Part shown: piece after piece, positions 8,957 to 53,539 of the stretch | Numbering within the stretch: position 1 is the stretch's first letter | Layout: every line of letters begins with the position of its first letter | Assembly: GCF_004324835.1 (NCBI RefSeq) | Contig: NW_021163190.1 | Coordinates: 319,242 to 375,850 of the forward strand | Source of the DNA: Dendronephthya gigantea | Lineage: Eukaryota | DNA length: 56,609 nt | Direction: 5' to 3' | Made by a program: the position numbers and the translations under genes | The notes under the pieces: model-generated | Database searches by the model: none | What the model saw: the letters and a program-made list of their open reading frames with translations, nothing else | What the model was told of the DNA's origin: nothing

Positions 8957-9017
8957 AAACTTGTTTATGTATCGTCGTACAAATGTTTCAATGCTGGAAA
9001 ATTTAACTAAAGGCCTA

Positions 9018-10227: not shown

Positions 10228-10598
10228 GAGATCAGTGGTGCTATATCCAGTTATTATTGGATCAGTGGTACTATATCCAGTTATTATGAGATCAGTGGTG
10301 CTATATCCAGTTATTATGAGATCAGTGGTGCTATATCCAGTTATTATGAGATCAGTGGTGCTATATCCAGTTATGAGATCAGTGGTGCTTTATCCAGTTA
10401 TTATGAGATCAGTGATGCTATATCCAGTTATTATGAGATCAGTGGTGCTATATCCAGTTATTATGAGATCAGTGGTGCTATATCCAGTTATTATGAGATC
10501 AGTGATGCTATATCCAGTTATTATGAGATCAGTGGTGCTATATCCAGTTATTATGAGATCAGTGGTGCTATGTCCAGTGTGATATGAGATCAGTGGAA
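10228..10598 (+). repeat. 30-bp satellite (gagatcagtggtgctatatccagttattat), about 12 copies
   Basis: Direct observation. The long ORFs here are artefacts of the repeat. Confidence 0.9.
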
Positions 10599-11204
10599 TG
10601 GTTTTTCCCGCGCGCTGCAGGCTGTTTTGAAATACACTAAACTAAAAAAACACTAAACTTTTTAAGTTCGTAATCATTTGTACAAGCGCTGGTCAATGGA
10701 ACATATTTTGCCAAAGGTCCTCCTTTTTCTATACTTGTCATTGTATTAAGGCAAAGTTGTTCTCGTCTTTCATTCAATCCTCCTTATAAGAGTAGCCTGG
10801 TAAAATAATTCTCAGAGCTCGTTTTCAGTGTACTCGCTCTAACTCTTTAGCAAAATATAAAGGTAAAGCGTGGTGCCATACAACGCAACCGGGAACGCCA
10901 CCTCGTCGTAAAGAAACGGATGAATACATATTAAACGTTCAGAGGTCTTGGATACAACTGACTCTATATGATCATTCCATTTAAGATCACTTTGAATTCT
11001 TGCATTTCTTGGCATTGGCTTCATAAAATTACCGAAGCCAAGAATTGATTGAATCCAAACCGAACTGAATCTTTGAATTGCTGCCTTTTGTAGTATATTC
11101 ATATGTTGATACATCATCTACAAACTTCCAAATACCCATTTCGCGTGTTTTACATCAAGGTCATTTATCATGACCAAAAACAAAATTGGTCCAAGCTTAG
11201 TCAC

Positions 11205-11447
11205 TCGGGCTTGTTTGAAAGGCGTTTAGCTTAAACGGTGGATAAGCCAAAGTTTCAACTGAAATACTCTCATACATCTTGCGAATTACTAAGCCCGCAT
11301 CTAATGCATTTAATATGTACTTCCATTGAAAATTAAACTATTTACATCGAAATATTTCAGCTCAGTTGTTCAATAAATAGATAATTTGGTTTTCCATTTT
11401 GAACTTATCCACCGTTTAAGCTAAACGCATTTCGAACAACCGGCCCC
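11205..11447. mobile_element. MITE family with TIR GGGGCCGGTTGTATCAAGCCCGTTTAGCTTAAACGGTGGATAAG (degenerate copy)
   Basis: TIRs. Other copies at 18644, 30511, 43251, 43716, 44683 and 52438. Confidence 0.55.
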
Positions 11448-11821
11448 TGGGGTACGCCTACTTTCATTGGCAACCAATCCGAGATTTCTCCCCCAAGTTT
11501 AACGTGATGTCGGCGCTTAGTGAGGAGGTAACAGAGACAATCTAACACCTATGCCTAACAGCTTTGATATTAATAAATTATGCCCTATACGGTCGAACGC
11601 CTTTGCGAGATTATGCCATTTACCGCGATCCTATTTCATATAAACAACATCCTAAGCGACACAAGTAGAAATATATTTGTTTTGGTGACGAGACGGTCCA
11701 ATATATTACTTGCTTTAAATGCGTGGAATGAGGGTTGCTAGAATAGACTGGCGCTCTAGTTGCATCGCATTGTTTGGCCGAAGCGTCCAAAATACGCTCG
11801 TGAACGCGACTCTCGTTTCAT

Positions 11822-12330
11822 GAAGCAATGATACTGATAGTTGATGAAACTCTCATGTAAACTCTCGCTTGTCAACTCTCATGCAACTATTGTTCTCGTT
11901 TGATCAAGCAATGATAGTTGATGAAACTCTCATGTAAACTCTCGCTTGTCAACTCTCATGCAACTCTTGTTCTCTTTGATCAAGCGATGATAGTTGATGA
12001 AACTCTCATGTAAACTCTCGCTTGTAACTCTCATGCAACTCTTGTTCTCGTTTGATCAAGCAATGATAGTTGATGAAACTCTCATGTAAACTCTCGCTTG
12101 TCAACTCTCATGTAACTCTTGTTCTCGTTTGATCAAGCAATGATAGTTGATGAAACTCTCATGTAAACTCTCGCTTGTCAACTCTCATGCAACTCTTGTT
12201 CTACTTTGATCAAGCAATGATAGTTGATGAAACTCTCATGTAAACTCTCGCTTGTCAACTCTCATGCAACTCTTGTTCTACTTTGATCAAGCAATGATAG
12301 TTGATGAAACTCTCATAAACTCTCGTAAAT
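11822..12330 (-). repeat. 77-bp satellite, inverted array
   Basis: Reverse complement of the unit at 2952..3440. Confidence 0.9.
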
Positions 12331-12339
12331 TCTAGGGTT

Positions 12340-14590
12340 TAAAGGGTCTTAATTTCGAGTGGAATTTTACACACTTCAAATTGTCAATAGTCAATATTTT
12401 TTTAATATACTAGGCAGCAAAAATGTGATTAATTGCTTTGTAAAAGGTTAATTTTTATGGTGAACGCAAAATGATTTCCACGACATCGTTTTTAAATTTG
12501 ATTTCATCCCGTTCGCTAACTACAGGGTGTCTCAAAAAAAACGCAACACTTAAATATGCAAGAACATTAATACAGCTCTAAAGCGCAATAGATAAGCACC
12601 TCTGGGAATTGAAAAGGCCTCTTAATCCTTCATTTAAAATGCTAAAAGTCATTTTAGCTGAAGTGTAGTGCAAACCCGAACAATATTATAATATTCTTGC
12701 ATATTTAAGTGTTGCGTTTTCTTTGAGACATCCTGACATCCTGTTTATCGTAACTTTTCAGCCAGTTTAAGCCTCTGCATTAAATAAATACTTTTCAAAA
12801 AAAAAACATTTACCCCGCCGAAAATCAAAATTAATCCATGCTGGGACTAAGAGCGCTATATTGTGGCTCTAGCCTGAAAATTTACAGGGCGTATAAAAAA
12901 AACTGCAACCCTAATAATTCCAAGGGGGCGACGATTTTTTTTTGCTGAATAAAAGCGAACAGATTTGAATATTAATTGTGGTTGCAGTTTTTTTATATAT
13001 ATTCTTCCATACCGGCTTCTGGGTAAGTCTACACTGACATTCAAATGTATTACGAAATAAACTAGTTCTTTATTTGTTACATAAATTTTCAATGAAAATT
13101 TAATCGTTCACGTCAACCCGTCACTTCCACCGACGAATTAGTTGGATAATTGAAATAATAATGAACTGCAATTAGATGCTAATTGCTCGCAATAAAGTTT
13201 GTGAAATGATTCATTTCTTCGCAACGTTCGGCGGTCGACAGCGAAAAGTAAGTTGAAAGCGAATATCTCCATTCAATATCATCTCTTTGTACTGCCGAAG
13301 ATTTTTAATACGATTTCACCTAAGTTTTCCTTGCAAGGCAAGTTTTCCTTGCCAAGTTTTATTTGCTCTCTCGTACGCGATAAACATGTTTTTCTTTGAC
13401 AAGAAGTCTTGTTCAAAAGTTTTCCTTGACAAGGAGGCTTGTTCAAAAGCTAGTCATGACTTCAAAAGCTTTTCAACAAGGAAAAATGCTCGCGTGCACG
13501 GTCGTCAAGGAAAACTTGACAAGGAATTGCGCAGTAGGGAACAACAATCTTCCAGCCAATCGAGCAGGTTTTTAAAGTTTTATATCATCTTTATTCAAGA
13601 AAATTTTTCGCCTACACACGAGGAAATAAAACTCGGCAAGGAAAGGTGGAAAACTTGTTCGCCATATACACCAGCAAGTGAACTGGTCAGGAAAACTTGT
13701 TAAGGAAAACTTGGCAGTCTGCGTATGGGGCTTTATCAAAATATTCAGGCCTACAATGTAACGTTTAATCTTGCCGCAACCGTACATGATGGTCGTACTA
13801 AACATTAAAGAAAAGCCGGCTCGCACGAAAAAAACGTCACTGCCAGGGAATTGGTGTCGTCAACCATTCATTTAAATGCATTGAAATGGTGTTTCGAGGA
13901 CAAGCTCACTATCATCTGAGACATCTGAGGTATAGACCTCGCGAGGTTGTTAGCTCAGCAAGTTACTCTCGTGTGCGGATAGTTTTTCGTGAGGAATTCA
14001 CCTCGAGAGGCAAGTTTCTCGCGTTTGTGGATAGATTTCGGGCGCACACTAGGCCAACTAGTGACACGACTCGTGTGCGCTGGCATTTAAGGCATCAGAT
14101 CATAATTGACTAACCTTCTGGCTAATTGTGGTATACTTGTCCTCGCTATTTCGTACTCTTTTATCTCCAATCTGCAAAAAACATTAAAAAATATGTCACG
14201 TACAATTTCCCATTCGTCATTTTTGATGGAGTATCGTCTACGCTTTCTGTCGGTGGAGTGAAGGTTCTCAGAACCCCATCACCAGAATGGTATCAGATGA
14301 CGTCGAGAAAAATTATATGAGCCTTCTGGTATTCGCCTTGTCTAGGGTATATTTGTATAATGAAGAAGGTTGGATTCCTTGGTATGTGAAAAGATAATTT
14401 AGAATAGCTTAAGGCGTTTAAAAAGGCTGCTTTCGCAGGAAGTTTTGCAAGAAGTGTAGAGTCCTTCCAACGAACCGGTTAGAGAAAATGTACAGACGAG
14501 TTTATACCTAAGACAACCTAATCAAACTGAGGTGTTTTGACAGAGGTGTTTGTTCAAAACTGACCTTTAAAGTATTGTTCGTCGGTTAAA
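12340..14590 (+). repeat. About 2.2-kb dispersed repeat, copy A (non-coding, family unknown)
   Basis: Colinear with 20800..21800 (copy B, internally deleted) and 23870..26575 (copy C, 5'-truncated, with extra insertions). Confidence 0.75.
12523..12735. mobile_element. TA-flanked MITE with TIR CAGGGTGTCTCAAAAAAAACGCAAC
   Basis: Absent from the paralogous site in copy B (~21000). Confidence 0.6.
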
Positions 14591-14651: not shown

Positions 14652-14814
14652 GGATCTCCACCGCAGAGAAATAGTTCGCTAGCGAAATATTCCCATATTT
14701 TCTTTAGAATTTTCACGGAATAACTACATTAGTTCAGTTTGGCTCAATTCATTTTAAAAGAAAATATACAAATATTTTGCCAGCGAACTATTCGCTGGAA
14801 GTGGAAATCCAGCC
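14652..14814. mobile_element. Paralogous copy of the MITE at 7888..8048
   Basis: Block duplication. Confidence 0.5.
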
Positions 14815-15611
14815 CTAAGTCTCAAAATTGTCTCCAAGTTGCTCAGATGATCTCGACGAAGCGAATTTGTAACGTTTGTTAGATGAGGTTTTACATTAAT
14901 GTGGTTCAGATCTCAGTTAAACTACTACTATTTTTACCATCGAGGGAACATCGACCAATCAAATGCGAGAAATCTTTCGGAATAACCAATCAAAAACGCG
15001 ATACGTCAGCGAAGGCTAGTTCCGATAAGGCTGGTACATGTTCAGTGGCGCAGCTAGCCCGACAATTTATTCATGCTATGCTAATATTTTGGTGTTCATT
15101 GACTGTAAAAACAATGCATTTCTAAAGAAATGAATATTGAAAAAAAAACGTCAGGCTGGGCCGGCTGGCTACGCCACTGTAATATGTGAAATTCAGAAAG
15201 ACCCCGAAATTTTACGCTTGCATTTATTAGAATTGATGCCATCGTTATAATAGAAATGACTTGAAATGTGCATAGCGGGAAAAATTCGTCGGGCTGGCTA
15301 CGCCATGGCAAAGAAGGTAGTTTTCATCTCGCTTTTGTGCCATTTGCGAGAAGAATTTTCAATGCTTCCGTCAAGTAAACCTATATCATCACGTTGAATA
15401 CTTTGAAATTATCTAGTTCGGTTTATAAATTTCAAAAATTTGTATGCGCGACGGAGAATATAAATTGCCTGAAACTCGCGTAAAAAACGAACTTGAAGAT
15501 CTTTGCAAGACGCAAGACCGATATCAAATGGATTTGAAGCCATCTCAATTTAGGTAGACAAAGATTGACTCTCAGACTACAGACATACTTCCAATAGCTA
15601 TAGCAATATTA

Positions 15612-16407: not shown

Positions 16408-16602
16408 CCCTGTTACACGGTGCGATTTTTCTTGCAACTTGCAATGCAATTCTTCTTTTGAGAGATGTAAATTTAGCAACTACAGAACTTTTGTATTTAT
16501 TATTTTCTTACACTAACATTTTGAAGCCTTTTCACCAATTTAGATCTCTTAAAAGTAGAATTGCATTGCAAGTTGCAAGAAAAATTGCACCGTGTAACAT
16601 GG
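16408..16602. mobile_element. MITE with TIR CCCTGTTACACGGTG...TTTTGAGAGATGTAAAT
   Basis: Long TIRs. Related copies at 23530..23760 and 27075..27305. Confidence 0.6.
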
Positions 16603-18272: not shown

Positions 18273-18643
18273 TAGTTATCTTCAGCATCAGACTGTGAAA
18301 TCTCACTCGCATGGTCAACCAACCAGTAGGAACAAAGTTTGTGGTCACCATTCAAAACATTTCACTCAGAGATCATTGCTAAAAAAATCACACAATTTTA
18401 GAGAAATCCTTCAAAGAGGAACTTCTGGTTTCGAGTGATCTGTGACGTAAAACCGTAATGACAAAAAAAATGAAAAAAATTTTAAATCATCAAATATTTT
18501 CGCCCAAACACTCGAAGATCGTTTAAACTAGTTTATATACCTTGCATTAGGTTGTGAACGAAGTTTTGAACAGTATTTAATGGTTGCTAAACACCAAACG
18601 ACAAGGGTTTCTTCAAAATATAATCGGGATTTAATGAATACAG

Positions 18644-18883
18644 GAGCCGGTTGTATCACGCCCGTTTAGCTTAAACGGCGGATAAGTCAAAATTAAATAA
18701 CACTTTTACATCTCTCTTGAATGAGTTAACTTGAATATTATGCACTGAATATGTAGTTGTAAACAGTATCTTTGTATTAAGGTTGAAAACATTTAGTTTG
18801 CTTGTTGAATAAAACGATAGACTTGCTTTCTATTTTGAACTTATCCGCCGTTTAAGCTAAACGGGCTTGATACAACCAGGCCC
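18644..18883. mobile_element. GGCCGGTTGTATC-TIR MITE
   Basis: Empty site present in the block 1 paralogue (aatacag|aagtatatagc at ~10158). Confidence 0.7.
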
Positions 18884-18952
18884 AGAAGTATATAGCTTCC
18901 AAGCCTTCCATTCAAGGTGGGTAGGTAAAGTTGCTATATCAAGTGTATTGTG

Positions 18953-19625
18953 AAATCTGTGGTGCTATACCCAGTTATTATGAGATCAGTGGTGCTATAT
19001 CAAATTATTATTAGATCAGTGGTGCTATATCCAGTTATTATTGGATCAGTGGTGCTATGTTCAGTTATTATGTGATCAGTGGTGCTATATCAAATTATTA
19101 TTAGATCAGTGGTGCTATATTCAGTTATTATGAGATCAGTGGTGCTATATCCAGTTATTATTGGATCAGTGGTGCTATGTTCAGTTATTATGTGATCAGT
19201 GGTGCTATATCAAATTATTATTAGATCAGTGGTGCTATATTCAGTTATTATGAGATCAGTGGTGCTATATCCAGTTATTATTGGATCAGTGGTGCTATGT
19301 TCAGTTATTATGTGATCAGTGGTGCTATATCAAATTATTATTAGATCAGTGGTGCTATATTCAGTTATTATGAGATCAGTGGTGCTATAACTAGTTATTA
19401 TGAGATCAGCGGTGCAAAACTAGTTATTATGAGATCAGTGGTGCTATATCCAGTTATTTTGAGATCAGTGGTGGTATATCCCGTTATTATAAGATCAGTG
19501 GTACTATTTCTAGTTATTATGAGATCAGTGGTGCTATATACAGTTATTATGAAATCAGTGGTGTTATATCCAGTTATTATGAGATCAGTGGTGCTATATA
19601 CAGTGCAATATGAGATCAGTGGAAT
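18953..19625 (+). repeat. 30-bp satellite, paralogous array of about 22 copies
   Basis: Same unit and same flanks as 10228..10598. Confidence 0.9.
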
Positions 19626-19889: not shown

Positions 19890-20085
19890 TCTCGTTTGAT
19901 CAAGCAATGATAGTAGACGAAACTCTCATGTAAACTCTCGCTTGTCAACTCTCATGCAACTCTTGTTCTCGTTTGATCAAGCAATGATAGTTGATGAAAC
20001 TCTCATGTAAACTCTCGCTTGTCAACTCTTGTGCAACTCTTGTTCTCGTTTGATCAAGCAATGATAGTTGATGAAACCATGGTTT
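19890..20085 (-). repeat. 77-bp satellite, paralogous shorter array
   Basis: Same unit, preceded by the same ~130-bp unique segment as 11640..11770. Confidence 0.9.
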
Positions 20086-20799: not shown

Positions 20800-21800
20800 G
20801 TTTAAAGGGCCTTAATTTCGAGTGGAATTAATTATACGCACTTCAAATTCGTATAGTCAATGTTTTTTTAATATACTAGACAGCAAGAATGTGATTAATT
20901 GCTTTGTAAAAGGGTTAATTTCTATGCTGAACGCGAAATAATTTTCACGACATCATTTTTAAATATGATTTCATCCCGTCCGTAAACTATATCGTAACTT
21001 TTCGGCCAGTTTAGGCCTCTGCATTAAATAAATACTTTAAAAAAAAAAAAACACGCCGCCGACAATTGCTGGGAACAAAATCACCCACAAATTTATGCTT
21101 ACAAAGAGCGCTATATGAAGGCTCTAACCCGAAAATTTACAGGGTGTATCAAAAAACTACAAGCCTAATAATTTCAAGGCGCCAACGATATTTTGTTGTT
21201 GAATAGAAGCGAACATATAAATGAATATTAGGTGTGGTTTTTTAACACCCTTTATATTCTTCCATCGCCTCTGGGTAAGTCTATGCTGACATTCAAATAA
21301 GACCTAGTATATTACGAAACAAACTAGTCCTTTATCATATATTATCATAAATTTTCAATGAAAATTTAATCGTTCACGTCAACCCGTCAATTCCACCGAC
21401 GAATTAGTTGGATAATTGAAATAATAATGAACTGCAATTAGATACTAATTGCTTGCATTAAAGAGATTTCTCACAACGTTTGCCGGTCAACAACGAACAG
21501 TCAAGTTCAAAGCGAATATCTTCGTACAATAATCACTTTGTTGTACCGAAATTCTTTGAAATCAACTTCACCATATTAGATGTATGTTATCGAAATGTTC
21601 CCGCCTACAATGTGAGGTTTAATCTTGCCGAAACGGTAACATTAAAGGCCTAATTTTTTCTTCAGATTTTCTTTGATTTGCAGTCCATCAAATATCAGAT
21701 CATATTCGACTAACCTTTTCCTTAATTGCGGTAAACTCGCTCTTGTTTTTTCCTTGATTTTCTTCTCCAATCTGCAAAAGTCATAAAAAATCAGTGTCAC
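20800..21800 (+). repeat. Dispersed repeat copy B
   Basis: See copy A. Confidence 0.7.
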
Positions 21801-22184
21801 GTAAACTCCGTGTTTTTGTTATTTTTATTAATGCTTAACGTAGATAATTCTTACGCTAATACTCTCTTGTGATAAATAAAGATTCTCTCTATTCCCCAAG
21901 ATGACGATGAGTGAAGTTATATGTTATTATTCGTATATCAAATACTCGAGTAGTTTTTTTTGTGGAATGCTTGGAATGCAGGAAAAAAGTAGTCGAAGAG
22001 TCGCTCAACGCGTGTTACAATGCTTCTTTTACAAAGTTTTGCTGCGGGTATAGGACCCTTCTAATGAAAATACACAAACTAGGTTATGTATTAAAACAAC
22101 TTCTTCGATTTTAAGCTTATTTATTATCCCCGCCTTCGTTTAATATCAGAGAGATATTTACCCTCATATTTGGCGCAAAGCGTG

Positions 22185-22615
22185 AAAATAACCTTTTTTA
22201 TCCCTCTGAAACGTCGAAAATGACCCTTTTTATCCCTCTGGAACGTCGAAAATAACCTTTTTTATCCCTCTAGGACGTCGAAAATAATCTTTTTTCCCTC
22301 TAAAACGTCGAAAATAGCTTTTTATCCCTCTGGAACGTCGAAAATAACCTTTTTTATCTCTCTAGAACGTCGAAAATAACCTTTTTTATCCCTCTAGAAC
22401 GTCGAAAATAACCTTTTTTCCCTCTAGAAGGTCGAAAATAACCTTTTTATCCCTCTAGAACGTCGAAAATAACCTTTTTTCCCTCTAGAACGTCGAAAAT
22501 AACCTTTTTTCCCTCTGGAACGTCGAAAATAACCTTTTTATCCCTCTGGAACGTCGAAAATAATCTCTTTTATCCCTCTGGAACGTCTGAAATGACCTTT
22601 TCTATCCCTCAGACT
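22185..22615 (+). repeat. Satellite of about 31 bp (tatccctctggaacgtcgaaaataaccttttt), about 13 copies
   Basis: Direct observation. Confidence 0.9.
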
Positions 22616-23512: not shown

Positions 23513-23529
23513 ACGCTTATGGGTAATTA

Positions 23530-23760
23530 GATATTCGACCCCGTTCTTCCCTGTTACACGGTGGATTTTTCTTCACGAGCGTGAAATACAATTCTACTTT
23601 TAAGAGATGTAAATTAGTGAAGAGTCTTGAAAATACGAGTATTGGACGCACGGTAATAACGTCGATGCAGTGTAATAAACACAAACGTTTCGTAGTTGCC
23701 ACATTTACATCTCTCAAAAGTACAGCAAGCTGCACAAAAATTGCATATATGAAACTGCAT
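23530..23760. mobile_element. Related GTTACACGGTG-TIR MITE
   Basis: Shares TIR and internal sequence with 27075..27305. Confidence 0.55.
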
Positions 23761-23796
23761 TAAAGCACGACTCATTTCTTTATCATTAGCATTATA

Positions 23797-23845: not shown

Positions 23846-23967
23846 GTACATTATTACTAGATGACAAATTTTTGTTTACAAAGAGCGCTATATCACGGCT
23901 CTAAGCCGAAAATTTACATAATTTCAAGGGGCCTACGATGTTCTGTTGTTGAATAAAAGCGAACATA

Positions 23968-24494
23968 CCGTAAATGATCGATTAAGCACCGCTACTCGAA
24001 TAAGCGCCGCTGTCGAATAAGCGCCGCACCTCAATAAAAAAAAATTAATAAGCGCCGCTATCGAATAAGCGCCGCGGCGCCTATTTAGGAAGATATAAAT
24101 AAACGCTAAAAAATGTAGAAATAAACGATTCTTTATTTAAACGCGTTAATCCTAACATTTAAACTATTTAGAACGACGGCCAGTATTGAAACTTTAAAGT
24201 TTTATTGTCGAATATCTCTTACAACCGGGCTCTTATGACAGTTCTGATAGGTTAAAACACTTCGGTATGTCGTCGATTCACCCTATATGCTGTGAACAGT
24301 TAGCGGAAATCATTAACCCAACTTCGCGCTTTCTTTTTCCTGTAACTTCTACCAAAAGTTTATTCCATTCATCGGCCTTCAGAAACTGATAATCTATTTG
24401 CTCACTTTGAAATAAGCGCCGCTGTCGAATAAGCGCCGCGTTTTTAAATCGATATTTGCAATGAGTGCCGCGGCCTTTAATCGATCATTTACGG
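23968..24494. mobile_element. TA-flanked non-autonomous DNA element (TIR CCGTAAATGATCGATTAA, internal cgaataagcgccgc repeats) inserted in repeat copy C
   Basis: TA at 23966-67 and 24495-96. The paralogous empty site in copy B reads gcgaacatataaatgaatat. Confidence 0.75.
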
Positions 24495-24988
24495 TATATG
24501 AATATAAGTGTCGTTGCAGCTACACCCTATATATTCTTCCATGGCCTCTGGGCAATACTGACAATCAAACGAGACCTGGTAGCTATATTATGAAATAAAC
24601 TAGTCCTTTATTTGTTACATAAAATCAATGAAAACTTCATTGTTCACTTCAACCCGTCACTTCCACCGACGAATTAGTTGGATAATTGAAGTAATAATGA
24701 ACCGTAATTAGATGCTAATTGCTCGCATTAAAGTTTGTAAAATGATTCATTTTGTCACAACGTTCGGCGATCGACAACGAACAGTCAGTTGAAAGCGAAT
24801 ATCTCCATTCAATATAATCTCTTTGTTGAACCGAAAATTTTCAATACGATTTCAAGTTTTTCTTGGCAAGTTTTATTTGCTCTTTCGTACGCGAAAAAAT
24901 TGACAAGTTTTCCTTGACAAGGAGCCTTGTTCAAAAGCTAGTCATGACTTCAAAAGCTTTTCAACAGGCAAAAATGCTCTTGTAACCG

Positions 24989-25500
24989 CGCAGTAGGGAA
25001 CAGCGCAGTAGGGAACAGCGCAGTGGGGAACAGCGCAGTAGGGGACAGCGCAGTGGGGAACAGCGCAGTAGGGGACAGCGCAGTAGGGAACAGCGCAGTA
25101 GGATACAGCGCAGTAGGATACAGCGCAGTAGGGAACAGCGCAGTAGGGAACAGCGCAGTAGGGAACAGCGCAGTAGGGAACAGCGCAGTTGGGAACAGCG
25201 CAGTAGGGGACAGCGCAGTAGGGAACAGCGCAGTAGGGAACAGCGCAGTGGGGAACAGCGCAGTAGGGGACAGCGCAGTAGGGAACAGCGCAGTAGGGAA
25301 CAGCGCAGTAGGGAACAGCGCAGTAGGGAACAGCGCAGTAGGGAACAGCGCAGTAGGGAACAGCGCAGTTGGGAACAGCGCAGCAGGGAACAGCGCAGCA
25401 GGGAACAGCGCAGCAGGGAACAGCGCAGCAGGGAACAGCGCAGTAGGGAACAGCGCAGTAGGGAACAGCGCAGTAGGGAACAGCGCAGTAGGGAACAGCG
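24989..25500 (+). repeat. 15-bp minisatellite (gcgcagtagggaaca), about 34 copies
   Basis: Copy A has a single copy of the motif at the orthologous site (~13530). Confidence 0.9.
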
Positions 25501-27074
25501 CAACAATCTTCGTGCCAATAGAACAGGTTTGTTTTCTTTTGAGGTTTTATCATTTCTGTTTGTTTGGAGATTCGGTCGTATACTCATTTTATCATCCCTC
25601 GTTTTATCGTAAATATACTCCTATTATTGTAAAACTTGTCAAGAAAAAAATGGTCAATTTTTTCGCGTAAACACAAGCAAATAAAACTTGTCAAGGAAAA
25701 CTTGCCCGTCTGTACGGGGCTTTATCAAAATATTCACGCCCACAATCTAACGTTAAATCTTGCCGCAGCCGTAAATGATGGTCGTACTAAACATTAAAAA
25801 AAAAGCCGGCGCGCACGAAAAATGTCACTGGTGAGCATTGGTGTCATGGTCAACCATTCATTTCAATGCATTGAAATGGTGTTAACAGGACAAGCTCACT
25901 ATCATCTGAGGTAAAGACCTCGCGAGGCTGTTAGTTCAGCAAGTTACTCTCGTGTGCGGATCGTTTTCGTGAGGAACTCGCCTCGAGAAGCAAGTTTCTC
26001 ACGTTTGTGGATAGATTTCGGGCGCACACTAGGCAACTAGTGACACGACTCGTGTGCACCGACATTTAAGGCATCAGATCATGATTGACTAACCTTCTGG
26101 CTAATTGTGGTATACTTGTCCTCGCTATTTCGTACTCTTTTATCTCCAATCTGCAAAAGCATTGAAAAAAATGTCACGTACAATTTCCCATTCGGTGTTT
26201 TTTATGGAGTATTGTCTACGCTTTCTGTCGGTGGAATGAATGTTCACAACCGCATCACCAGAATGGTATCAGATGACGTCGAGAAATTATATGAGCCTTC
26301 TGGTATTCGCCTTGTCTCGGTTATATTTGTATAATGAAGAAGGTTGGATTCCTTGGTATGTGAGAAGATAATTTAGAATAGCTTAAGGCGTTTAAAAAGG
26401 CTGCTTTCGCAGGAAGTTTTGCAAGAAGTGTACAGTCCTTCCAACCGGAACTGGTCAGTGAAAATGTACAGACGAGTTTATACATAAGACAACCTAATCA
26501 ATTTAAGGTTTTTGGGCAAAGGTGTTTGTACAAAACTGACTATTAAAATATTGTTTGTCGGTTCCATAATAAACGAAAGGCAGAACTTTAATATTATATG
26601 GGGAGATGCTTTGCGCCTGCATAGTTCTTTAAAATTTGTGCCTGAGTTCTGGGACGTTGAAAATGGCCTTTTTTCGCTATTAGGCAGCAGTTCTTCACTA
26701 TAATGAATAATAAAACCATACCACAAATATAGTAAAGTGCGATCTTGAATTTTTACATTTTTATTGTGTACATGCATTTACCGTATCTATTCGTTTGAGG
26801 TCCACCGAACGACTAAATTCGGTATTCAATATTTGAATCCGAAATGAATTTGTATCATTCACATAAGAATCGGGACATGAAAAGTTCAAAGTCTGAAACA
26901 GGGCTTGCGAGCGTGCATGCGAGAGCTTGAATTTGTAGCCTTTGAGCGCCGCCGCAAGTTCTAAAAATTTAAACAGCACCGCTGTTCTGAAACGACTAAA
27001 TACGGTATATAATACTTGAATCTCAAATGATTTCAACTTGCCCAACTTTTCTAGATTTAAATATTTACGCTTAG

Positions 27075-27305
27075 GGGTAATTAGATATTCGACCGGCGTT
27101 CTTACAGGCTGGTTTTTCTTCACGAGCGTTCAATACAATTCTACTTTTAAGAGATGTAAATTAGTGAAGAGTCTTGAAAATGCGAGTGTTGGAGGCACGG
27201 TAATAACTTCGATGCAGTGTAATAAAACACAAACGTTTCGTAGCTGCCACATTTACATCTCTCAAAAGTACAGCAAGTTGCATAAAAATCGCACCTTATG
27301 AAATC
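27075..27305. mobile_element. Related GTTACACGGTG-TIR MITE
   Basis: About 90% identical to 23530..23760. Confidence 0.55.
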
Positions 27306-27755
27306 GCCTCAAAGCACGACTCATTTCCTTATCATTAGCATTATATAATTACTGGATGCTGATTGGTCGAGGGTGGTACGGTCATTTCATTAATTACAGA
27401 GCAATACAATTAATGATTTTGTCAAAATAAACAAAATGGCGGAAAAAACAGCTTTGGGCAAACTAAATAAAACACCGCCAGATAGGTAAACAAAAATACT
27501 GCAAAAAGTACAAAATATTAGATAAGTCTAGAAAAGATGTATTTTTACAAATAACTATCGTGTTTGCATTGTAAATTGGATAGTATTCATGCTGATATTA
27601 AACAAATTATCAAGCGATTTTGCTGGCATATTTCGGGGTTCATAGACTAATAATACTCGAGTTGTTTGAAATTTTGTTTAAATTTATCGTTCAATTTTTC
27701 AAAAATTTTCAAACATCGCTCCCACTATTAGTTCGAGAATCACATGATACAACTA

Positions 27756-27921
27756 GGGATGGATTTCCTCTTGTAGAGAAATTGCTTGCTATCGAAATAT
27801 TTGCATATATTTTCTTTTGAATTTTAACAGCATATAAATAGCTACATTTGTTCAACTTCAATTTAAAAGAAAATATGCAAATATTTCGCAAACGAAGCAT
27901 TTCTCTACAAGTGGAATCCAG
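27756..27921. mobile_element. Tourist-like MITE family member (gggatggatttcctcttgtagagaaat ... atttctctacaagtggaatccag)
   Basis: TIRs. The internal gcatattttcttttgaattttaacagcat...aaaagaaaatatgcaaatatttcg is shared with 46610..46778. Confidence 0.55.
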
Positions 27922-29630: not shown

Positions 29631-30240
29631 GTCTAGAACTGTCTAGAACTGATAGAGCTATCCAGTAGAAATAAAGTTAGTTTAGTTTAGGTTTCCTCCT
29701 GTAGTAACACTGGATCAATAAGAGATGATCCTTACTGGACCTCTAGGAAGAACAGTTTAGAACTGATAGAGCTATCCAGTATAAATAAAGTTAGTTTAGT
29801 TTAGGTTTCCTCCTGTAGTAACACTGGATCAATAAGAGATGTTCCTTACTGGACCTCTAGGAAGATCAGTTTAGAACTGATAGAACTATCCAGTATAAAT
29901 AAAGTTAGTTTAGTTTAGGTTTCCTCCTGTAGTAACACTGGATCAATAAGAGATGATCCTTACTGGACCTCTAGGAAGAACAGTTTAGAACTGATAGAAC
30001 TATCCAGTATAAATAAAGTTAGTTTAGTTTAGGTTTCCTCCTGTAGTAACACTGGATCAATAAGAGATGATCCTTACTGGACCTCTAGGAAGAACAGTTT
30101 AGAACTGATAGAGCTATCCAGTATAAATAAAGTTAGTTTAGTTTAGGTTTCCTCCTGTGGTAACACTGGATCAATTACTGGACCTCTAGGAAAAACAGTT
30201 TAGAACTGATAGAGCTATCCAGTATAAATAAAGTTGGTTT
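29631..30240 (+). repeat. 114-bp satellite, about 5.4 copies
   Basis: Period counted as 114. Unit: cagtttagaactgatagagctatccagtataaataaagttagtttagtttaggtttcctcctgtagtaacactggatcaataagagatgatccttactggacctctaggaagaa. Confidence 0.9.
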
Positions 30241-30510
30241 ACCATAATTGGAGTAAGTACTCTGTGGGGTTGCCTGTCGCTTGCGACCAAGTTTATAAAT
30301 AAATAAATAAGTTCAGGTTTCCTCCTGTAGTAACCTGGATCAATAATAGATGATTGTCAAAAAGGTTTCTTTCATGGAAATACCCAGCGGCCGGTTACAT
30401 AAAACTCTTAACTTCATTTTCAGCGATTAAATCTAAGTTAACCGGCAAATGTACACTCTTCTTTGGGAATTCTAGCCAGCGCTAAAAGTTAGCTATCGTT
30501 TTAACAATCT

Positions 30511-30751
30511 GGGCCTGGTTGTATCAAGCCCGTTTAGCTTAAACGGTGAATAAGTTTAAAATAGAAAGCAAGTCTATCGTTTTATTCAACAAGCAAACTA
30601 AATGTTTTTAACCTTAATACAAAGATACTGTTTACAACTACATATTCAGTGCATAATATTCAAGTTGAGTCATTCAAGAGAGATGTAAGAGTGTTATTTA
30701 ATTTTGACTTATCCGCTGTTTAAGCTAAACGGGCTTGATACGACCGGCCCC
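30511..30751. mobile_element. GGCCGGTTGTATC-TIR MITE
   Basis: About 40-bp TIRs; the internal sequence is shared with the other copies. Confidence 0.65.
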
Positions 30752-32105
30752 TGACCAGGTGTTCAATTCAAGAGTTGCATGTTTGGACAGGATATGCAAC
30801 ATATGGCCCACGTTAAAATGCATAAGCCGTGAATATAGGCACTTAATATTAACAACAAAATGTTGGGCGATCTTTTCCATGCACGGCTGAACGAAAGCCT
30901 TCGCAGGAAGACAGCAACGCTTGCATGTAGTTTTACGATTCTTTTAAACTATGAATGTTGTTGTCACTTGTTAGAGCAGCCATGCAATGCAGCTTCATAT
31001 ATATAAACAAATCGATCTGATTTGCTTTCAACTCGCAGTAAAAGTTACAAGAGCAGCTCATGGGTATCAGGAAAGGTCGAAAGATTGCGACAAACGATTG
31101 AAGTTTGCATTTAAAGCGATTAATCTGCTTTCCTAGAAGACGATACAGCGATTATTATATTTTTAAAAACAGTTTGTATTAATTTCTTTGGCGGGAAAAG
31201 TATTTGTATGTAAACACGCGCATATTAGCCACAATTTGCGAGTCTCAGAAATTCGTTTAGAATACGGAATTTTGCATTCAAACAATTGAAACAAACTAAA
31301 ATATATTTGCCGCCGAATAAATAGAACTAGCTTTGCAACTGAGCGAGGAGGACTAACGAGTAACGAGCAAGTTCCTTTAAGTTCGTTCCACGAACCACTA
31401 GTGTATGGCGCGTTTACATTTGTCGGATATTTGAACAAAGTGTCTTTCATATATATAATAAACTCGCGTAACCTTGGCTAAATGAATTATGCTATACCCG
31501 TAATCTACAATAACAACAACAAACTCATTCAAATCGCAAACACCATAAATCCTGTGGTTCATAGCACGAGTTCTTTGGTGTATCGACATGACACGATGTT
31601 TGAAGTGTTTTCATACGATACACGCAATAACATCGGTTATAATTTCACAACACAGTGATTTTCAATCAAAATACCTCAGATAAACCGCCTGAACGCCTTC
31701 CAGCCGTCGGGAACAACTCCGAAGCATCTATTAGACGTATTTCAATAAAATATCCCGGTCGCTTACCTTAAATAGTGGTTGATTTTCGAAACAGGCATCT
31801 CTAATGAACTCTGATCCCCATTACACGTCTTCAAGCGATTTGTCTCGTCATGCAAATTTCGTCTTTTATACTTTTAGTTAATTACATACCAGAAGCTACG
31901 GGAAGTCAACGTTGATTGACAAATGGCTCGCAAATGATGACAGATTGCTCTAAGAGCGTATATCCCGTCAATGAGTTAACACGCGTCGTTGGTGAATTGC
32001 CAAGTTGTGGAAATTCAAAAAGGTGAAAGGCTATTATAAAGACGTGATTGTCGCATTTCTCGACCACATACACTACTGAGCTGTTGATGATTAAACGTTT
32101 ACGTT

Positions 32106-32412
32106 TTCTCCTGTAGTAACACTGGATATTGAAGAGATGATCCTTACTGGACGTCTAGGAAGAACAGTTTAGAACTGATAGAGCTATCCAGTATAAATAA
32201 AGTTAGTTTAGTTTAGGTTTCCTCCTGTAGTAACACTGGATCAATAAGAGTTGATCCTTACTGGACCTCTAGGAAGAACAGTTTAGAACTGATAGAGCTA
32301 TCCAGTATAAATAAAGTTAGTTTAGTTTAGGTTTCCTCCTGTAGTAACACTGGATCAATAAGAGATGATCCTAGCTAAACCTCTAGGAAGAGCTATATCC
32401 AGTATAAATATT
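32106..32412 (+). repeat. 114-bp satellite, about 2.7 copies (left arm of an inverted pair)
   Basis: Same unit. Confidence 0.9.
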
Positions 32413-32794
32413 GTTGTGATTAGTTTTAAGTGCTCAAGTAGGTGACAAAGTCTTTAAACAGTTTAGCAATGCAAATTTTTAGCGGAAAAGGTTTATCATT
32501 TTCTGTCCATAAAACACCAGAAAGGCTGCGCGTTTCCTTTGCTGTGCAATCGTGTTTAGCCTCTTTGCGTTCTGACGGAGAAGGGAAATTCCTAGCTTTA
32601 TACTTCCATATTTGACAAGTTCCTAACCGACCCAGAAACGTCATTTTTTTGTTCTTGCGTTATAACATTGAAAACGAAATTGATCTGACGTTTATTAGTT
32701 GACTGCTAGTGGTTTTCAAATCACTGAAATTGACATTCGGATATGATTAATCGGCTTAGAGTAGAGAAGATATATATTAGATTAACCGCATTAG

Positions 32795-33222
32795 AGGTTC
32801 GGTAAGGATCATCTCTTATTGATCCAGTGTTACTACAGGAGGAAACCTAAACTAAACTAACTTTATTTATGCTGGATAACTCTATCAGTTCTAAACTGTT
32901 CTTCCTAGAGGTCCAGTAAGGATCATCTCTTATTGATCCAATGTTACTACAGGAGGAAACCTAAACTAAACTAACTTTATTTATACTGGATAACTCTATC
33001 AGTTCTAAACTGTTCTTTCTAGAGGTCCAGTAAGGATCAACTCTTATTGATCCAGTGTTACTACAGGAGGAAACCTAAACTAAACTAACTTTATTTATAC
33101 TGGATAGCTTTATCAGTTCTAAACTGTTCTTCCTAGAGGTCCAGTAAGGATCATCTCTTATTGATCCAGTGTTACTACAGGATGAAACCTAAACTAAACT
33201 AACTTTATCTATACTGTTATAA
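32795..33222 (-). repeat. 114-bp satellite, about 3.8 copies in inverted orientation (right arm)
   Basis: Reverse complement of the unit. Confidence 0.9.
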
Positions 33223-35171
33223 TATGACCTAATGTATCACAAATAAACAACATACTACACACGGAAAAACAATTAAAACATGACCGGCAATTCCTCACTA
33301 TCCTGCTTTATCATTCGGATTGTTCTGTTGGTTTCCGGCCGCATCTTTTACAACGGAAAAAACAGCAACAAATGACAAAAGGCTGTGTCACTTCACAGTT
33401 CAAACTTGATAATTCGTGCCACAACACATGCTTTACGCATGTACATCACATGAACCATCTCAGCGTTTCGCCATAAAAGCAGTTATTATATCTTTCAGTT
33501 AAAGAAACACTGGTTGAAATACTTCGGAGCGTAAAAAATGCTTCAAAAGTATATGAAAATGAGATAAAAACTGTAATATCGCAATCAATATGGATTCGAA
33601 GGTCAAGATTGCATCATATTTCACACATGAGCGCTTAAACACTCAGTTTGATGAAAAGATATTAGATTTTTCGATGAAAGGTCAAGATGGCGGTTTTTCT
33701 TAAGCAGCCTTTGAATGGTTAGTTTGCGTCAGTTAAAAACGCCTTCCGTGTGTCTGTAACTATTTATTTTTTTAAGGGATTTACTATAAGATCAACGAAG
33801 ATTCCATTCTGTTCCGTGGTTCGACAATTGAAGGTCATTTTGATCATCTTTCGTTCGATAGCTCTCAGTCGGTCTCGGCGGGCCTTTTCAGTTGTCGTTT
33901 GAAAATGCCGGCGTTCAAGCAACGCTTACTCGCAGAAATTACGACGAAATATAGACCATGATTAGCCTTTAAGAGACTGTAAATTAGGTGAAAAGTCGTG
34001 TCGTTTAGTTCCTCTAGAGATCTTCCGAAAAAAAGCTAGAAATCTGCTCAGTTTAATATGTTAAAATGCCCTTCGCAGTTTATAGCTCAAAGGTCCTACT
34101 TGCTGTGAAAACGGCCACGGTTTCAATGGGTATAAACATTGCATGTTATCGCGTTTTTTATTACAAACGGCGTGTGTTTGTTCCTAGCAATTGACATGTC
34201 GGCTTTCCACAAGTTCCGACCTTTGGAAATATGCATTAATTCATTAGCGTTTGGCACAATCGCTTTTTAAAGAATCACACGCACGTTGATGGGTCGCTTG
34301 AGGCAGCCACGGGTTTGAGCGATAAAGCCTTTCTGTCATGAAATAACACTTTCAGGAAATGTTTATATATCTCCATCTATCAAATTGTCGTCACGAAAAC
34401 CTCTCCTGTAAACTGTGGTCGTATGCTCGGGTCTACACTTCGATTTTTTCGAGTGAAAATCGATTTGTTTGTATGGCCATTGAGATTTCAGATTTTGATC
34501 TAAATTTCAAACGCTTCACGTTTGCAAGACGATTTTGTTCAAGTATTTTGAGAGTCGTTTTGAAGTGAAGAACCGTGGCGGTTTTTCACCATTTATTTGC
34601 TTGGCTTAATTGTGAATATTTAAAATATTGACAATGCTATAGCTGTTGACTACGGTATATATCACGTTACCAACAGCACAGCTCTAGAAATGGCATCTTT
34701 GAATGGCAATTAATGATGTAAGCTTGTTGCCAAACGCTATGCAGAAAATATAGCTCTGGGAAAGCTCAAAGCGAGCAAAAATCGCTCTATAATCAAAGTA
34801 ACCTTCATAAAAAACCTTTTAATAACGTCTCGGGTTTTGCAGTTGTATTTTTTTCACGAAAGAAGCAACTGAATACAATCATATTTTCATATCGCAACGG
34901 GTTACTAGTAACCTGCCGATAAGAGCGGTATTTTTGGCCGGTTTCCACGAATTATGTTTGGTAAAGTTAACCAGACTTCCTGCCATGAATGGGGTCAATT
35001 TCCGGCTCTTCCAAGGGATGCATTCACCTCAATTAAACCTTCTATAAAGGCGATACTCCATCACGGTCGCAGCATATAGGAAGATTTTTCAAATGGAGGA
35101 TTGTTATTATTATCATATTTAACCAGGATACCTACATCATCTATAGTGTTTTTCAGTGGGGCCCTGATTAA

Positions 35172-35339
35172 AGGCGGATTTCCACTTACAGCGAAATCGT
35201 TCCTAGCGAGATATTTGCATATTTTCTTTTGTTTCTAGAACAGTCAAATCGAACTACTTTATTTATGCTGTTAAAATTCAAAAGAAAATATGCAAATATT
35301 TCGCTAGCGAACGATTTTGCTGTAACTGGAAATCCGCTT
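35172..35339. mobile_element. Tourist-like MITE (AGGCGGATTTCCACTTACAGCGAAATCG ...)
   Basis: About 90% identical to 46610..46778. Confidence 0.65.
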
Positions 35340-38300
35340 TGCTACTAGTTGTGTGCGAATTCTAAACAGGCTCAAGCGATGCAGACATTTGACTGATCTC
35401 AAAGATATACTGTTTCATGTTTTCCCATATAACTTGTCAAAAAAAAAGACCACTTTACTTTCTCGAATTGCTTTCGGATATGAAACTAACTACGCGAGAG
35501 TTTATCTTTGATGATGTCTCTAATGCAAATTCTTTAGACGCGCCTAACAAATAAAATCCCCCTCAAAGAATGTGTCAAAATGGTTTAGAATTTATATATC
35601 ATGTCTTACAGCGTAATGAGTTATGAATTACAGCTTCTCGGGTAGCACTTCGTTTTCTAAATGCAACTTTGAACCTAATTTAACAAGGTATAGTTGAGTT
35701 TCGTTTGCATTTAATTTGAGAACATGCTTGACGTTTGAAACGAATTTTTGTGAACGCGATTGTAAAAAGCTTGTAATAGGCTTAGGCCTATCGATACAGA
35801 CGTGAACTTAATAACTCCAGATATGATCGAGTTGAAATTCGATTTCAGCTGAGAGCCATTGAGATTGTATCGTATTGTTACACAATATATATCTTTAACA
35901 AGTGCACGGAATTTGCAAGGAATTCACTAGTTTCGTAATATTTTTAAACCAAAGTTTGTATGTATCGTGTAAGATAGATTAGATTGAAATTGAACACGTA
36001 TTATTTTGTAAATATTGTACTCTGTACTTGCCGTCCAAATAGTTTTCATTTTCAATGACTATGGGGAGTTTTATTTGCTCTATAAATACATCTAGAAATT
36101 TCTAGAAATTTGGTGCATAAACGCATTTATAAATTCAGTCATCGGGTTAGTTCCATTGCTCTGCTTCTAATCAGTGGCCCCTGTGTTTGTTAAAAAGGTT
36201 TCGTAGGTTAAAGGTAACCTTTTTTAAAAAATCCACTCTTGCTTGCGTGGTGGCCTGGTGGGTGAACAGCGGTTAGTCCATTAAGTTAATAGGATACAAT
36301 TGCCATCATCTCTTTTTTATTGCCGGCTGAATTTAACGTGTTATAACTTGCGCCCCTCTTGACCAAGTTCATGGTCGGCATAATTTGCATGGTTTGCGCA
36401 ACGCTTATATTTCAAAACATTGGAATTTCGATAGAAGTATAATGTTGCACTAGTAGATAATATATTGTTTATAACTTCATCTTTTAAAAGCCACGGGGTC
36501 CATAGAACCCGTTTAACATGACATTAATACTTAATCGTCTTAATGCTAGTTTCAAGAACTTTTCCATTGGGTAATCAGTGTTAAGGCTGCTTTCCAGTTA
36601 CGCGTTTTTTATACGCACGTACACGTACGGAAAATTTGAAATGCTTTTAGATTTTTATTATTTAACATCTGGGTAACGCATGCTAAAATCGAACTCGAGA
36701 CCATCAATGACGCAAAGAATTTTGCCGGGAAGTCTATTTGGAATGATTGCAGATTTTCTGCTTAAAAAATCGTGATCAGTCAAAGAGAAATTATTCATCC
36801 GCGAATCAGAAAACGTTTGACAACAGATTTTATTCTTTCCGGAACAGTGTTCTGGGATTTGAACCCAGAAGCCAAACAGTGCATTTCAACAATGGAATTT
36901 GAAAGACAGGACTTCGTCTTTTGCCATAGCTTTGGTTGGCCATACGGAAAAGTTTTCGTATGAATTGGCATTGAAATTGTATATAGTTTAAAAAAGGGAA
37001 GTAATTTTGATGAATTTGTTTGGCCCCAGACATGGACACTGTTTTTTACAAGCCAAACGAAAAGGAGGGAAACCGGAGTACCCGGAGAAAAACCCTCCTG
37101 GTGGTCTGCGGTATTGCCCATTACCAGGCAGTAACACTGACTACCATACGATGGTCCGAATTTGATATTTTTGATTTTGAAATTCCGCAATCGTTAGTTG
37201 GGAGGGTGGGACAGTACACCCCACCCACCCCCCTATAGTCCGAATTATTGCTTCTCGCTTCTCATTGGCTGGCTTTCAAACGCATCACAGTCAGTAGAAC
37301 TCGCCATATTCATTTGCTAGATTGCTACGCAATATTGATCCGCCATTTTGTTTTTTTCGCCATTTTGTTTTTTCGCCATTTTGTTTTTTCATATAATGCT
37401 CTAAGAATTTGTTCGCCGTTCATATTTTCAGTCAATTTAGGTGATTATATTTTACTTTGGTTATCTAATAAATATTCGTCTGACAATTGCCATTTATTTC
37501 AATGCTTTCTCCGTGGAAAAATCGTGCAAAAAACCCAGGAACAAGTCATTGTTCCAACATGCAGCTAATTTTTGGCCTTTGTCAGACGTTCCTGGTGGTC
37601 TAAATAGGTTCTTTATTTATTGTTTATTTTATTGTAACTTTTGAATGCCTTTTAACTTCGAACGCGCGCTTGTATGAAGGACATTTACATTTACTACAAT
37701 TTTTCTCATGATCTCATCAACTGATTTCAAATTTCGATGAAATTTGAATAAAATCTCACAATCATGACATGCATTTACATACTATACTTCAAATTCATGA
37801 TTACTATGATATGGTGCTCGATATGTAATCAATTATGCTTAAATTTTGCGTTGTAATGCAATGCAATGACATTTTTATCAAAACTGAATTGTTGCCAAGC
37901 GAAACTGTCGCTTTATCGAATGATAATACTGGAAATAAAGTGATTGTATTCTCAAATAACTGATGTCTAGTGAAAATTTGCAGCCTAGAATGTGTCGTGT
38001 GTAGCTCAGCAGACATCGTTTGTTATTATGAATTGATTTCTGTTATTCTTTTATTTGAAACAGACGCTTATAGACAAGATCATCCAGTATCCTCTCGTGA
38101 AATATCATAAAAATTCTGTTTTACCAAACTGAAAACGACCGCTAATTTTACCCTGGGTTAAGTTGCTTCGAACATCGAGAAAACACAGAAGGGAATATTC
38201 AATAGAGGGGCTTATAGAATTATCAAAATATATATTTGATACTTATCTTCGTAAACTTGAACCATATTCTGGATTTTTTAGATCACGGATCAACCAACAG

Positions 38301-40411
38301 TTCTTGATTTTCGTCCGATCAAATACCGCGATAAAGTTGGAGCCAGTCCGTTCTGCGCATGTGCTGTATCAGACAACTCATCTGCGAACGAAGGTGACAA
38401 TCTTGTTGAATTGTTTTCGTATATGCCACCATCTTGACCACGGATACCTTCAAAGACTCAAAACTAAATGATTCAAAAAAAGGGTTAGTACGTTCAATTC
38501 GATGCTATTTTGAGCTCTTGTTTCAAATTGTCAATGTTTCTGTTGTTCTATGTAGTGCAATTGGTCAGGAATTGTTGGGCATTATCGTTAGGTGCCTTCG
38601 GATATCTTTGTTCGAAGTCATGTAGTGGTTAACATGCAAAACACACCACCCCATTCCAATACCCCATCAACAGAGGGTTCAAATTATATACCAGTTCACT
38701 CAATATTCGAAGCAACCAGTTTAAACCATCACAGGATCAGAGTGTGCCAAACCACGAAAATAGTCAATCGAATATCGAAGAGGATTTTTAAAAAAGGATC
38801 GAGTCTATGCGTCAAAATAATTCAGGAATAATTTTTGTTTATACCGTGAGAAAAACCGAACATTAATTACTACTACAGCGAAATTTGTCCAAAAATTTGA
38901 TTAGGTTTTGAAAAGTTTTATGTGTCTTATATAAATAAATATTACAGTAAAGTCATGTGCAAAGTCGTGATGCAATGTAATGCAATGTGTTTCAATGTTA
39001 TTCAATTATTTTCAAATATGAGAAAAAAATCAGTGCTAAATGTCCTTCAAAATTTCCGCCATTTTTTGTCCAAAGCGCTGATATATAACACGTATATAAT
39101 CGCTTTGGTTTGCAACTTGCACCGGATGCTACATTAGATCCGAGCTTGTCGCGCATGCGCATCGCAAATCGCATTACCGCTGGCATCTAAGCTTGACAGG
39201 TCATCTGTCATCAAGCGCCCTACACAAGGATATTCAAATATATTTAGTTAGACCACCAGGCGAGTTCGACTTCAGAACAAATAATGATATTATTCATGCA
39301 TTGACTACGAAAGTTCTGAAGTCGATATCTAACTATAATACCTATAGTACCTATAGTATAAACCTGAATGAGCTTCCTCTTCACTTGAAACAGCTACTCC
39401 ATCCATTATCGAAGCATCTTTTTAATCTCCACAGCCTCCAATCGCACTCTAGTATCCGCGCTGACTTGTATCTCCAAGTAAGTCCAGTTGATATACATCG
39501 TCATCAGTCATGCGTAGATCACACTCCAGTATTCGTGCTGACGTGTGTCCCCCAAGTCAGTCCAGTCGATATACAACACCACCAGTCGTCTCTTCATCCA
39601 ATGCTCATCGTAGGCTCCAGTTCGCGGGTCTGTCTGCTCGCCAAGTCACCCACTTGTCGTACGCAAATACAAAAATGCTTCTATGTGCCCTTTTCAGGCG
39701 AAAATATTCCGTCGAAAATTAAGTAATCTTAATCAGAAATCAATTTATCGCAACTTATTTCATGAATTGTTGCCATGCAGCCAAATTACCTATGTTTTAA
39801 AAGCAAATCTAACGTACTTGGTTCGTTTTGTTCACTCGAAAACAGACATGCATACACAACAGCAAATTTTCAATTTTGCCGAAATAAATAAATAAACAAG
39901 AACACAAAATAAATAGATTAAACCGTTAACAAAGCGAAATACGTTTTCTTTTTCTTTTTAAAAACTTTTTGTGTCCTCTCTTACAGACGAAAATATTTTA
40001 TAGAAATCTGAAATCGTAATCGAAACCAACAATAAATTTATCCCAACTTTAAGAATTTTTTGTCCGCGCAACCATTTTATTTCAAAACTTTATTTTTTGG
40101 TTCAGTTTTTCATTTATTTAAAAGCAACGTGTCACAGTCACACTCACAAGTTCTCTTCTAAATTCTCATGCATCACGAATTAAGTTTTGAGCCGCTATAA
40201 AAGCGACATAATTTTCCCCCATTCCGCGCCTATTGAATCGAGCATGAAAAATACGAATGAGGGGCCCCTATCATTCGTATTTCTCGTGCCCAAAACACCA
40301 GTTCTTAATCCAGGGTTGGCCAATAAAATGTAAACCGAAAATTGAAGAATAAGGATCGAACAAGCGAGTGAATTATAGATTTATAGTCAATAGACACACG
40401 TTGATAGAAGG

Positions 40412-44664: not shown

Positions 44665-44682
44665 GCAACCGTGCATACGACA

Positions 44683-53527: not shown

Positions 53528-53539
53528 GTGAGTCAGTAG

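Follow-up and report, generated by a model that had tools for sequence, protein, structure and literature searches.

How a minisatellite starts is harder to study than how it grows afterwards. As outlined in two accounts of tandem-repeat origins (PMC3389668, PMC6947457), the model of Haber & Louis has slippage or unequal exchange between direct repeats of 5-10 bp that flank the future unit, and that of Taylor & Breden has slippage at noncontiguous repeats. Transposable elements (TEs) are a large source of such sequences: 23% of human minisatellites and satellites are TE-derived, and the two established initiation models cover about 6% of the human TE-derived tandem repeats (PMC3389668). Microhomology-mediated tandem duplications (MTDs), which form at high frequency and revert readily, are known from S. 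pombe (PMC8639346). Tandem arrays are also linked to short elements with inverted termini, among them MITEs with central arrays of variable copy number such as DTC84/pearl in bivalves (PMC3879986), the tandem-repeat-containing MITE Xstir of Xenopus (listed in PMC6947457) and the foldback transposon Tetris, which seeded a satellite in Drosophila virilis (PMC4079207).

Here we describe a 15-bp minisatellite of the cnidarian Dendronephthya gigantea and a paralogous site that holds a single unit. Both lie in the 56,609 bp of contig NW_021163190.1 that we analysed (positions 319,242 to 375,850, forward strand; hereafter the window, and all coordinates are counted from its first base). As in DTC84/pearl (PMC3879986), Xstir and the TE-derived minisatellites described by Ahmed & Liang (2012, PMC3389668), the array is central in a short non-coding element with inverted termini and its copy number varies between copies of that element. 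A short palindrome (GCGC) stands at the unit junction, as it does in DTC84 repeats; the core repeats of DTC84, however, are longer than the 15-bp unit described here, which is present once in one element and 34 times in the other. Tetris offers another parallel, a hairpin-forming inverted-repeat element giving rise to a tandem array. The repeats of Tetris, however, come from its inverted-repeat arms and spread as a satellite, while the unit described here is a unique internal 15-mer and the array a single local expansion.

Thirty-four units in one paralogue, one in another

Self-comparison of the window detected a tandem segmental duplication of a non-coding unit of ~6.8 kb, present as copy A (7826-14587), copy B (14588 to ~21800) and a partial copy C (~23864-26563). 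Identity between copies A and B is about 90% over the first half but about 78% over the last part, and their history is therefore mosaic.

In copy C, Tandem Repeats Finder (TRF) reports a period-15 array at 24984-25502, with 34.6 copies, 95% matches, 0% indels and a score of 912. It can be written as GCGCA(GTAGGGAACAGCGCA)x34 (24988-25502) and has the form DR-(X-DR)n, where the direct repeat DR is GCGCA, found at 24988-24992 and again at 25498-25502. This last GCGCA follows unit 34, represents 5/15 nt of an incomplete terminal unit, as is described for tandem repeats in PMC3389668, and is itself followed by ACAATCTTCGTGCC. We searched the whole window for GCGCAGTAGGGAACA with up to three mismatches and obtained 37 matches, where shuffling gives an expectation of 0.57 and a maximum of 3; 34 of the 37 adjoin one another in register at 24988-25497, as units that each have 0-2 mismatches. 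Two further matches, at 29503 and 29840, have three mismatches each and were taken as chance. The exact 15-mer is found once outside the array, at 13529-13543 in copy A. The features of both sites and of other repeats of the window are listed in Table 1.

Table 1. Positions of the array, its paralogous site, the surrounding module and other repeats in the window.
Feature	Position	Strand	Remarks
15-bp minisatellite, copy C	24988-25502	+	34 full GCGCAGTAGGGAACA units (24988-25497) and terminal GCGCA (25498-25502)
AACC, left-edge partial match to unit end AACA	24984-24987	+	TRF array start; homologous to AATT 13525-13528 in copy A
Solo unit, copy A	13529-13543	+	15/15 identical to array consensus; ACAATCTTC directly after, no second GCGCA
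Left flank of array	24496-24979	+	homologous to 12963-13491 in copy A, E=1e-130 (BLAST)
Right flank of array	25683-26563	+	homologous to 13692-14587 in copy A, 89.8% over 902 bp (BLAST)
29 bp in A, missing from C	13496-13524	+	inner inverted arm 13504-13517, 14/14 complementary to 13417-13430
Inverted-repeat (MITE/foldback-like) module, copy C	24853-25704		arms 24853-24911 / 25646-25704, 59 nt, 85% complementary
Inverted-repeat module, copy A	13319-13714		inverted arms 13344-13384 / 13604-13644 and 13339-13360 / 13692-13713
Copy B site	21563-21581	+	19 bp where A and C have the whole module; both B flanks align to A and C
Second tandem event, same module	13390-13449	+	30-bp unit x2 in A vs x1 in C (24908-24937)
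~245-bp family copies	18641-18886, 30508-30753, 43245-43494, 43712-43956, 44680-44925, 52433-52686		weaker copy 11223-11451
~170-bp family copies	7889-8057, 14652-14821, 27761-27921, 35166-35340, 46604-46784		
114-bp repeat arrays	29635-30241, 32097-32391, 32792-33216, 55279-55486		32792-33216 inverted
Three further large minisatellites	53538-54342, 40396-41001, 22184-22610		17 bp x47.5, 25 bp x24 and 32 bp x13.7, respectively

The array qualifies as a minisatellite: its units are arranged head to tail and in register (34 units), their length of 15 bp falls within the 10-100 bp range, and the unit is G+C-rich (9/15, 60%) with a strand asymmetry of 11/15 purines on the + strand. The interval 24001-26000 has a G+C content of 0.443, compared with ~0.35-0.39 in neighbouring intervals.

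Both flanks of the array align to copy A by BLAST and, once the array is collapsed to align with MAFFT, A/C homology reaches the motif from both sides. Directly downstream of the motif the two copies match as ACAATCTTC(CA/GT)GCCAAT(C/A)GA(G/A)CAGGT, and their identity in aligned columns outside the array is 88-93%, which corresponds to a flank divergence of 7-12%. The preliminary description of this DNA had placed about 34 tandem copies in C at the homologous position of a single copy in A, and our analysis agrees on both counts, with 34 in-register units facing one exact solo unit between flanks that align on either side. It had also read the sequence after the motif as the same in A and C; the downstream bases do match, but C has five extra bases, GCGCA.

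Assemblies are prone to errors in tandem arrays, and the length or even the presence of this one might stem from faulty long-read assembly or polishing. We consider this very improbable, as the units include five variants in an ordered, non-random pattern without indels and the flanks on either side are unique and clean; assemblers may miscount copies, but they do not invent structured arrays.

The window as a whole has a G+C content of 38% and gives 38 TRF rows. Several other arrays vary in copy number between paralogues, among them a 30-bp unit with 13.0 copies at 10208-10596 versus 23.0 at 18932-19622, and a 77-bp unit with 6.4 copies at 11835-12325 versus 2.4 at 19890-20077, the latter also forming an inverted array of 5.9 copies at 2984-3439. 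Among ten arrays of the window that we tested, the 15-bp array is the only one with a solo unit in a paralogue, and no solo units of the other nine minisatellites tested were found in the window. For the minisatellites of 17, 25 and 32 bp, neither a solo unit nor a second array was found elsewhere in the window.

An inverted-repeat module around the site

In copies A and C, the site is enclosed in a module with inverted arms. Without the array the copy C module measures ~337 bp, and the array occupies its central, non-TIR part. Folded as single-strand DNA, the copy C module reaches -149 kcal/mol (z=-11.4), and the copy A module has a z of -4.8; in the latter the solo unit is buried well inside the hairpin (nesting depth 73-79, the maximum being 86). 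The motif CAAGTTTTCCTTGNCAAG is present four times in the C module and five times in the A module, and these nine occurrences, none of which lies outside the two modules, compare with 0.25 expected in the window. What copy B has in place of the module is either an empty site or the product of a deletion.

Several features of this module, namely its terminal inverted repeats, its small size (~340-400 bp without the array) and its lack of coding sequence (its ORFs are periodicity ORFs only), suggest that it resembles a MITE or foldback element. Within the window, the module and CAAGTTTTCCTTGNCAAG occur only at the two paralogous sites and not at many non-homologous ones, and no third copy of the module was found there. 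A search for a target-site duplication gave no matching direct repeat visible at the ends of the A or C modules, the comparator in B being ~78% identical with 19 unalignable bp. Unlike mobile MITEs, the module is known from two copies that are related by segmental duplication, with no target-site duplication found, and it is at most a candidate mobile element.

We also looked for these sequences elsewhere. In viral contigs, CAAGTTTTCCTTGNCAAG matched 10 contigs with one match each, which we took as chance, the modules of the window carrying 4-5 each, and the array dimer had no match. Neither a conserved 22-mer of the module nor a 30-mer of the array matched the JGI metagenomes. The high identity of the module core to the left of the array (59/60) was considered as a sign of constraint and set aside: it is not significant against the ~90% background in a binomial estimate that allows for the number of 60-bp windows.

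Other short repeat families are dispersed through the window. Copies of a ~245-bp family, which are 91-95% identical and lie in both orientations, probably represent a young MITE or SINE-like family; it is partly palindromic, one copy weakly matching another in both orientations. A ~170-bp palindromic family matches itself in both orientations at 72-92% identity. A 114-bp satellite-like repeat has a dispersed short-array organisation, with four short arrays of 1.9-5.4 copies, 93-95% identical and in both orientations. Copy C itself is bracketed by a 284-bp direct repeat (88.9%; 23513-23796 and 27067-27345), to which a partly palindromic piece at 16408-16602, inside an insertion specific to copy B, is related; this looks like another short dispersed element family.

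The window also contains a Ty1/copia LTR retrotransposon (46832-51506), whose insertion would be recent, judging from the 99.4% identity of its two LTRs (46832-47154 and 51184-51506). Its pol ORF (47354-51088) has gag, integrase (rve) and RVT_2 domains, and the best protein match of the polyprotein, at 77% identity, comes from an ENA metagenome contig. On its outer side each LTR directly adjoins units of a 35-bp array (46777-46838 and 51505-51732), and a larger array lies at 46153-46609; the element appears to have inserted into this 35-bp minisatellite. One copy of the ~170-bp family sits between the 35-bp array and the 5' LTR.

Unit variants, reading frames and age of the array

The variant map of the 34 units reads NNababNccNNNNdbNNabNNNNNNdeeeeNNNN. 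There are five variant types, which derive from six substitutions confined to unit positions 7, 8, 11 and 12; positions 1-6, 9-10 and 13-15 are invariant in 34/34 units. Each variant type is found in 2-4 units, with no singleton, identical variants are neighbours four times (shuffle p=0.011) and the block 'ab' occurs three times. Because the variants lie in adjacent blocks, we conclude that they have spread through local duplications of single units or groups of units. No higher-order periodicity was detected in the array: mean unit identity stays within 0.933-0.952 at every lag, and repeated dimers show no excess (p=0.62).

In the 510 bp of the array we found 0 private substitutions, against roughly 18-31 expected on the C lineage from the 7-12% A/C flank divergence if the array had been static. 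Because private substitutions are absent despite this divergence, the present units coalesce well after the A/C split, and by this measure the array looks younger than the duplication. A young coalescence of the units is not proof of a young origin of the array, since turnover of an old array also erases private substitutions.

We considered whether the array may have a function, by encoding a protein of repeated pentapeptides, by forming a structured RNA or by serving as a set of regulatory or binding sites. Five of the six frames of the consensus unit are stop-free, ORFs of 203-215 aa run across the array, weak Pfam matches were obtained to Keratin_B2_2 (30.8 bits) and Pentapeptide_4 (27 bits, below the cut-off of 38), and most unit positions are invariant as given above. 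A stop-free period of 15 bp, however, opens reading frames automatically, and the ORFs begin and end in module DNA whose counterpart in copy A has no array. The Pfam matches are of the low-complexity, periodicity type and no single stretch passes by itself, and on these grounds the coding reading was rejected. As to the invariant positions, they weigh little when the whole array records six substitution events. Scans of the whole window with Rfam (gathering thresholds) and for tRNAs gave no match, and an exact look-up of the array ORFs in the assembly collection returned no record. A coding, RNA or other function of the array is thus not indicated by these results and is, in our estimation, most unlikely.

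A coding repeat of the same period is found elsewhere in the window, at 6025-6238, where KEPNS-like pentapeptides are encoded inside an ORF of 1026 aa (3449-6529, - strand). This ORF has no Pfam domain and is rich in low-complexity sequence; its homologues share 33-62% identity with it, and one of them, from the octocoral Paramuricea clavata and described as a hypothetical protein, shares 42%. The ORF probably corresponds to a large exon of a genuine gene with a lineage-restricted distribution.

Junctions and origin of the array

The two ends of the array differ from copy A in different ways. At the right junction, A reads GGGAACA-ACAATC and C reads GGGAACA-GCGCA-ACAATC, a 5-bp indel that a CA microhomology prevents from being placed exactly. 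The left junction differs by 29 bp (13496-13524), which adjoin the unit in A and are missing from C. Because A keeps a perfectly complementary inner arm there and C is without it, C looks like the rearranged copy at this junction.

The array in C carries the same short direct repeat (within the range of about 5-10 bp) at both ends, GCGCA and GCGCA. Copy A has no such arrangement around its unit, after which it reads ACAAT, a 1/5 match to GCGCA, and on reading its sequence we found no microhomology able to yield a 15-bp period in the observed register. A progenitor of the form GCGCA-N10-GCGCA would yield that period in that register. Because the second GCGCA and any suitable microhomology are absent from A, its sequence identifies it as a close relative of the progenitor rather than the literal pre-expansion allele.

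In the form in which the Haber & Louis and Taylor & Breden models are summarised in the accounts cited above, the DR-(X-DR)n structure of this array and its incomplete terminal unit are signatures of both. As in models based on flanking direct repeats, a 5-bp GCGCA bounds the array at either end and a one-unit homologue is at hand for comparison. Unlike in those models, the one-unit paralogue A is without the second repeat, and GCGCA-N10-GCGCA is a reconstructed progenitor, not an observed one; the comparison is also between paralogues in one genome, and not between alleles or species. Like the MTDs of S. pombe (PMC8639346), the first duplication would be made by a closely spaced pair of short microhomologies and would be reversible. 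Such reversibility fits the ambiguity between expansion and collapse that the A/C pair presents. The S. pombe events are subclonal and lead from one to two copies, whereas here the array is fixed at 34 units and its first step is one that we infer.

We think it probable, if some way from assured, that the array is a selectively neutral, non-coding minisatellite that expanded in C after the segmental duplication had separated C from A. The starting site would have contained a single unit or, at the most, 1.33 of them (GCGCA-GTAGGGAACA-GCGCA). The first 15-bp duplication may have occurred by replication slippage or by microhomology-mediated tandem duplication between GCGCA repeats 15 bp apart, and the array may later have grown, one to several units at a time, through further rounds of slippage, unequal sister-chromatid exchange or gene conversion; a step size of this order fits the variant blocks. 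The module has another tandem event on record, this one in the opposite copy, where A has two of the 30-bp units and C one (Table 1). The second GCGCA would have been either lost from A, by a 5-bp deletion across the CA microhomology, or gained by C. The hairpin may have promoted these events by causing forks to stall or break, a role suggested by the fact that the left junction of C also lost the 29-bp inner hairpin arm, and we regard this contribution as plausible.

The polarity of the change rests on the two copies A and C, B being without the module, so that the window holds no outgroup. This leaves room for a contraction, in which the ancestor of A and C had a multi-unit array that collapsed to one unit in A but persisted, with continuing turnover, in C. 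The route would be an out-of-register deletion of (n-1)x15+5 bp ending in the right flank, and the 5-bp register offset at the right junction is the expected remnant of such a deletion across the CA microhomology. It is also known that minisatellites shrink as well as grow (PMC3389668), no outgroup sets the polarity, and the 0 private substitutions would fit ongoing homogenisation too. Copy A, however, has exactly one perfect unit and no partial remnant, and reaching exactly 1.0 units needs a specific out-of-register event; moreover, it is A that keeps the symmetric inner hairpin arm and C that is the rearranged copy at the left junction. We therefore hold a contraction to be unlikely, though a serious contender. 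A birth in C and a collapse in A would each need at least one extra 5-bp event. The balance of the sequence evidence, with a symmetric inner arm and exactly one perfect unit kept in A and units in C that coalesce recently, leans towards an expansion in C, which we favour with some reserve.

The preliminary description had seen here the birth of a minisatellite from a unique sequence. The presence of 1 versus 34 units at homologous sites, in an array younger by appearance than the duplication, accords with this. The birth itself, however, is to be put more cautiously, as only two copies carry the site, B is without the module, A is not the exact progenitor and a 29-bp indel separates A and C on the left.

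A more specific version of an expansion in C would trace three changes in C to one repair event at a stalled or broken module hairpin: the loss of the 29-bp arm, the additional GCGCA and the first seeding of an array. We judge this doubtful, a long shot among the possible histories. If it were true, nature would have preserved in the A/C pair the states before and after a hairpin triggered the de novo formation of a minisatellite. The pair would then bear on how such arrays are initiated, a step for which published models account in only 6% of TE-derived tandem repeats (PMC3389668).

Overall, the array is a further instance of a known event, tandem-repeat growth in a repeat-rich animal genome, and changes no concept. 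Many other arrays of the window differ in copy number between paralogues, making this array one case of a general tandem-repeat turnover. With 1 versus 34 units, intact flanks and an array bounded by direct repeats, the A/C pair is a tidy illustration of the slippage or microhomology route and, should the array prove polymorphic, it might be usable as a VNTR marker in this cnidarian.
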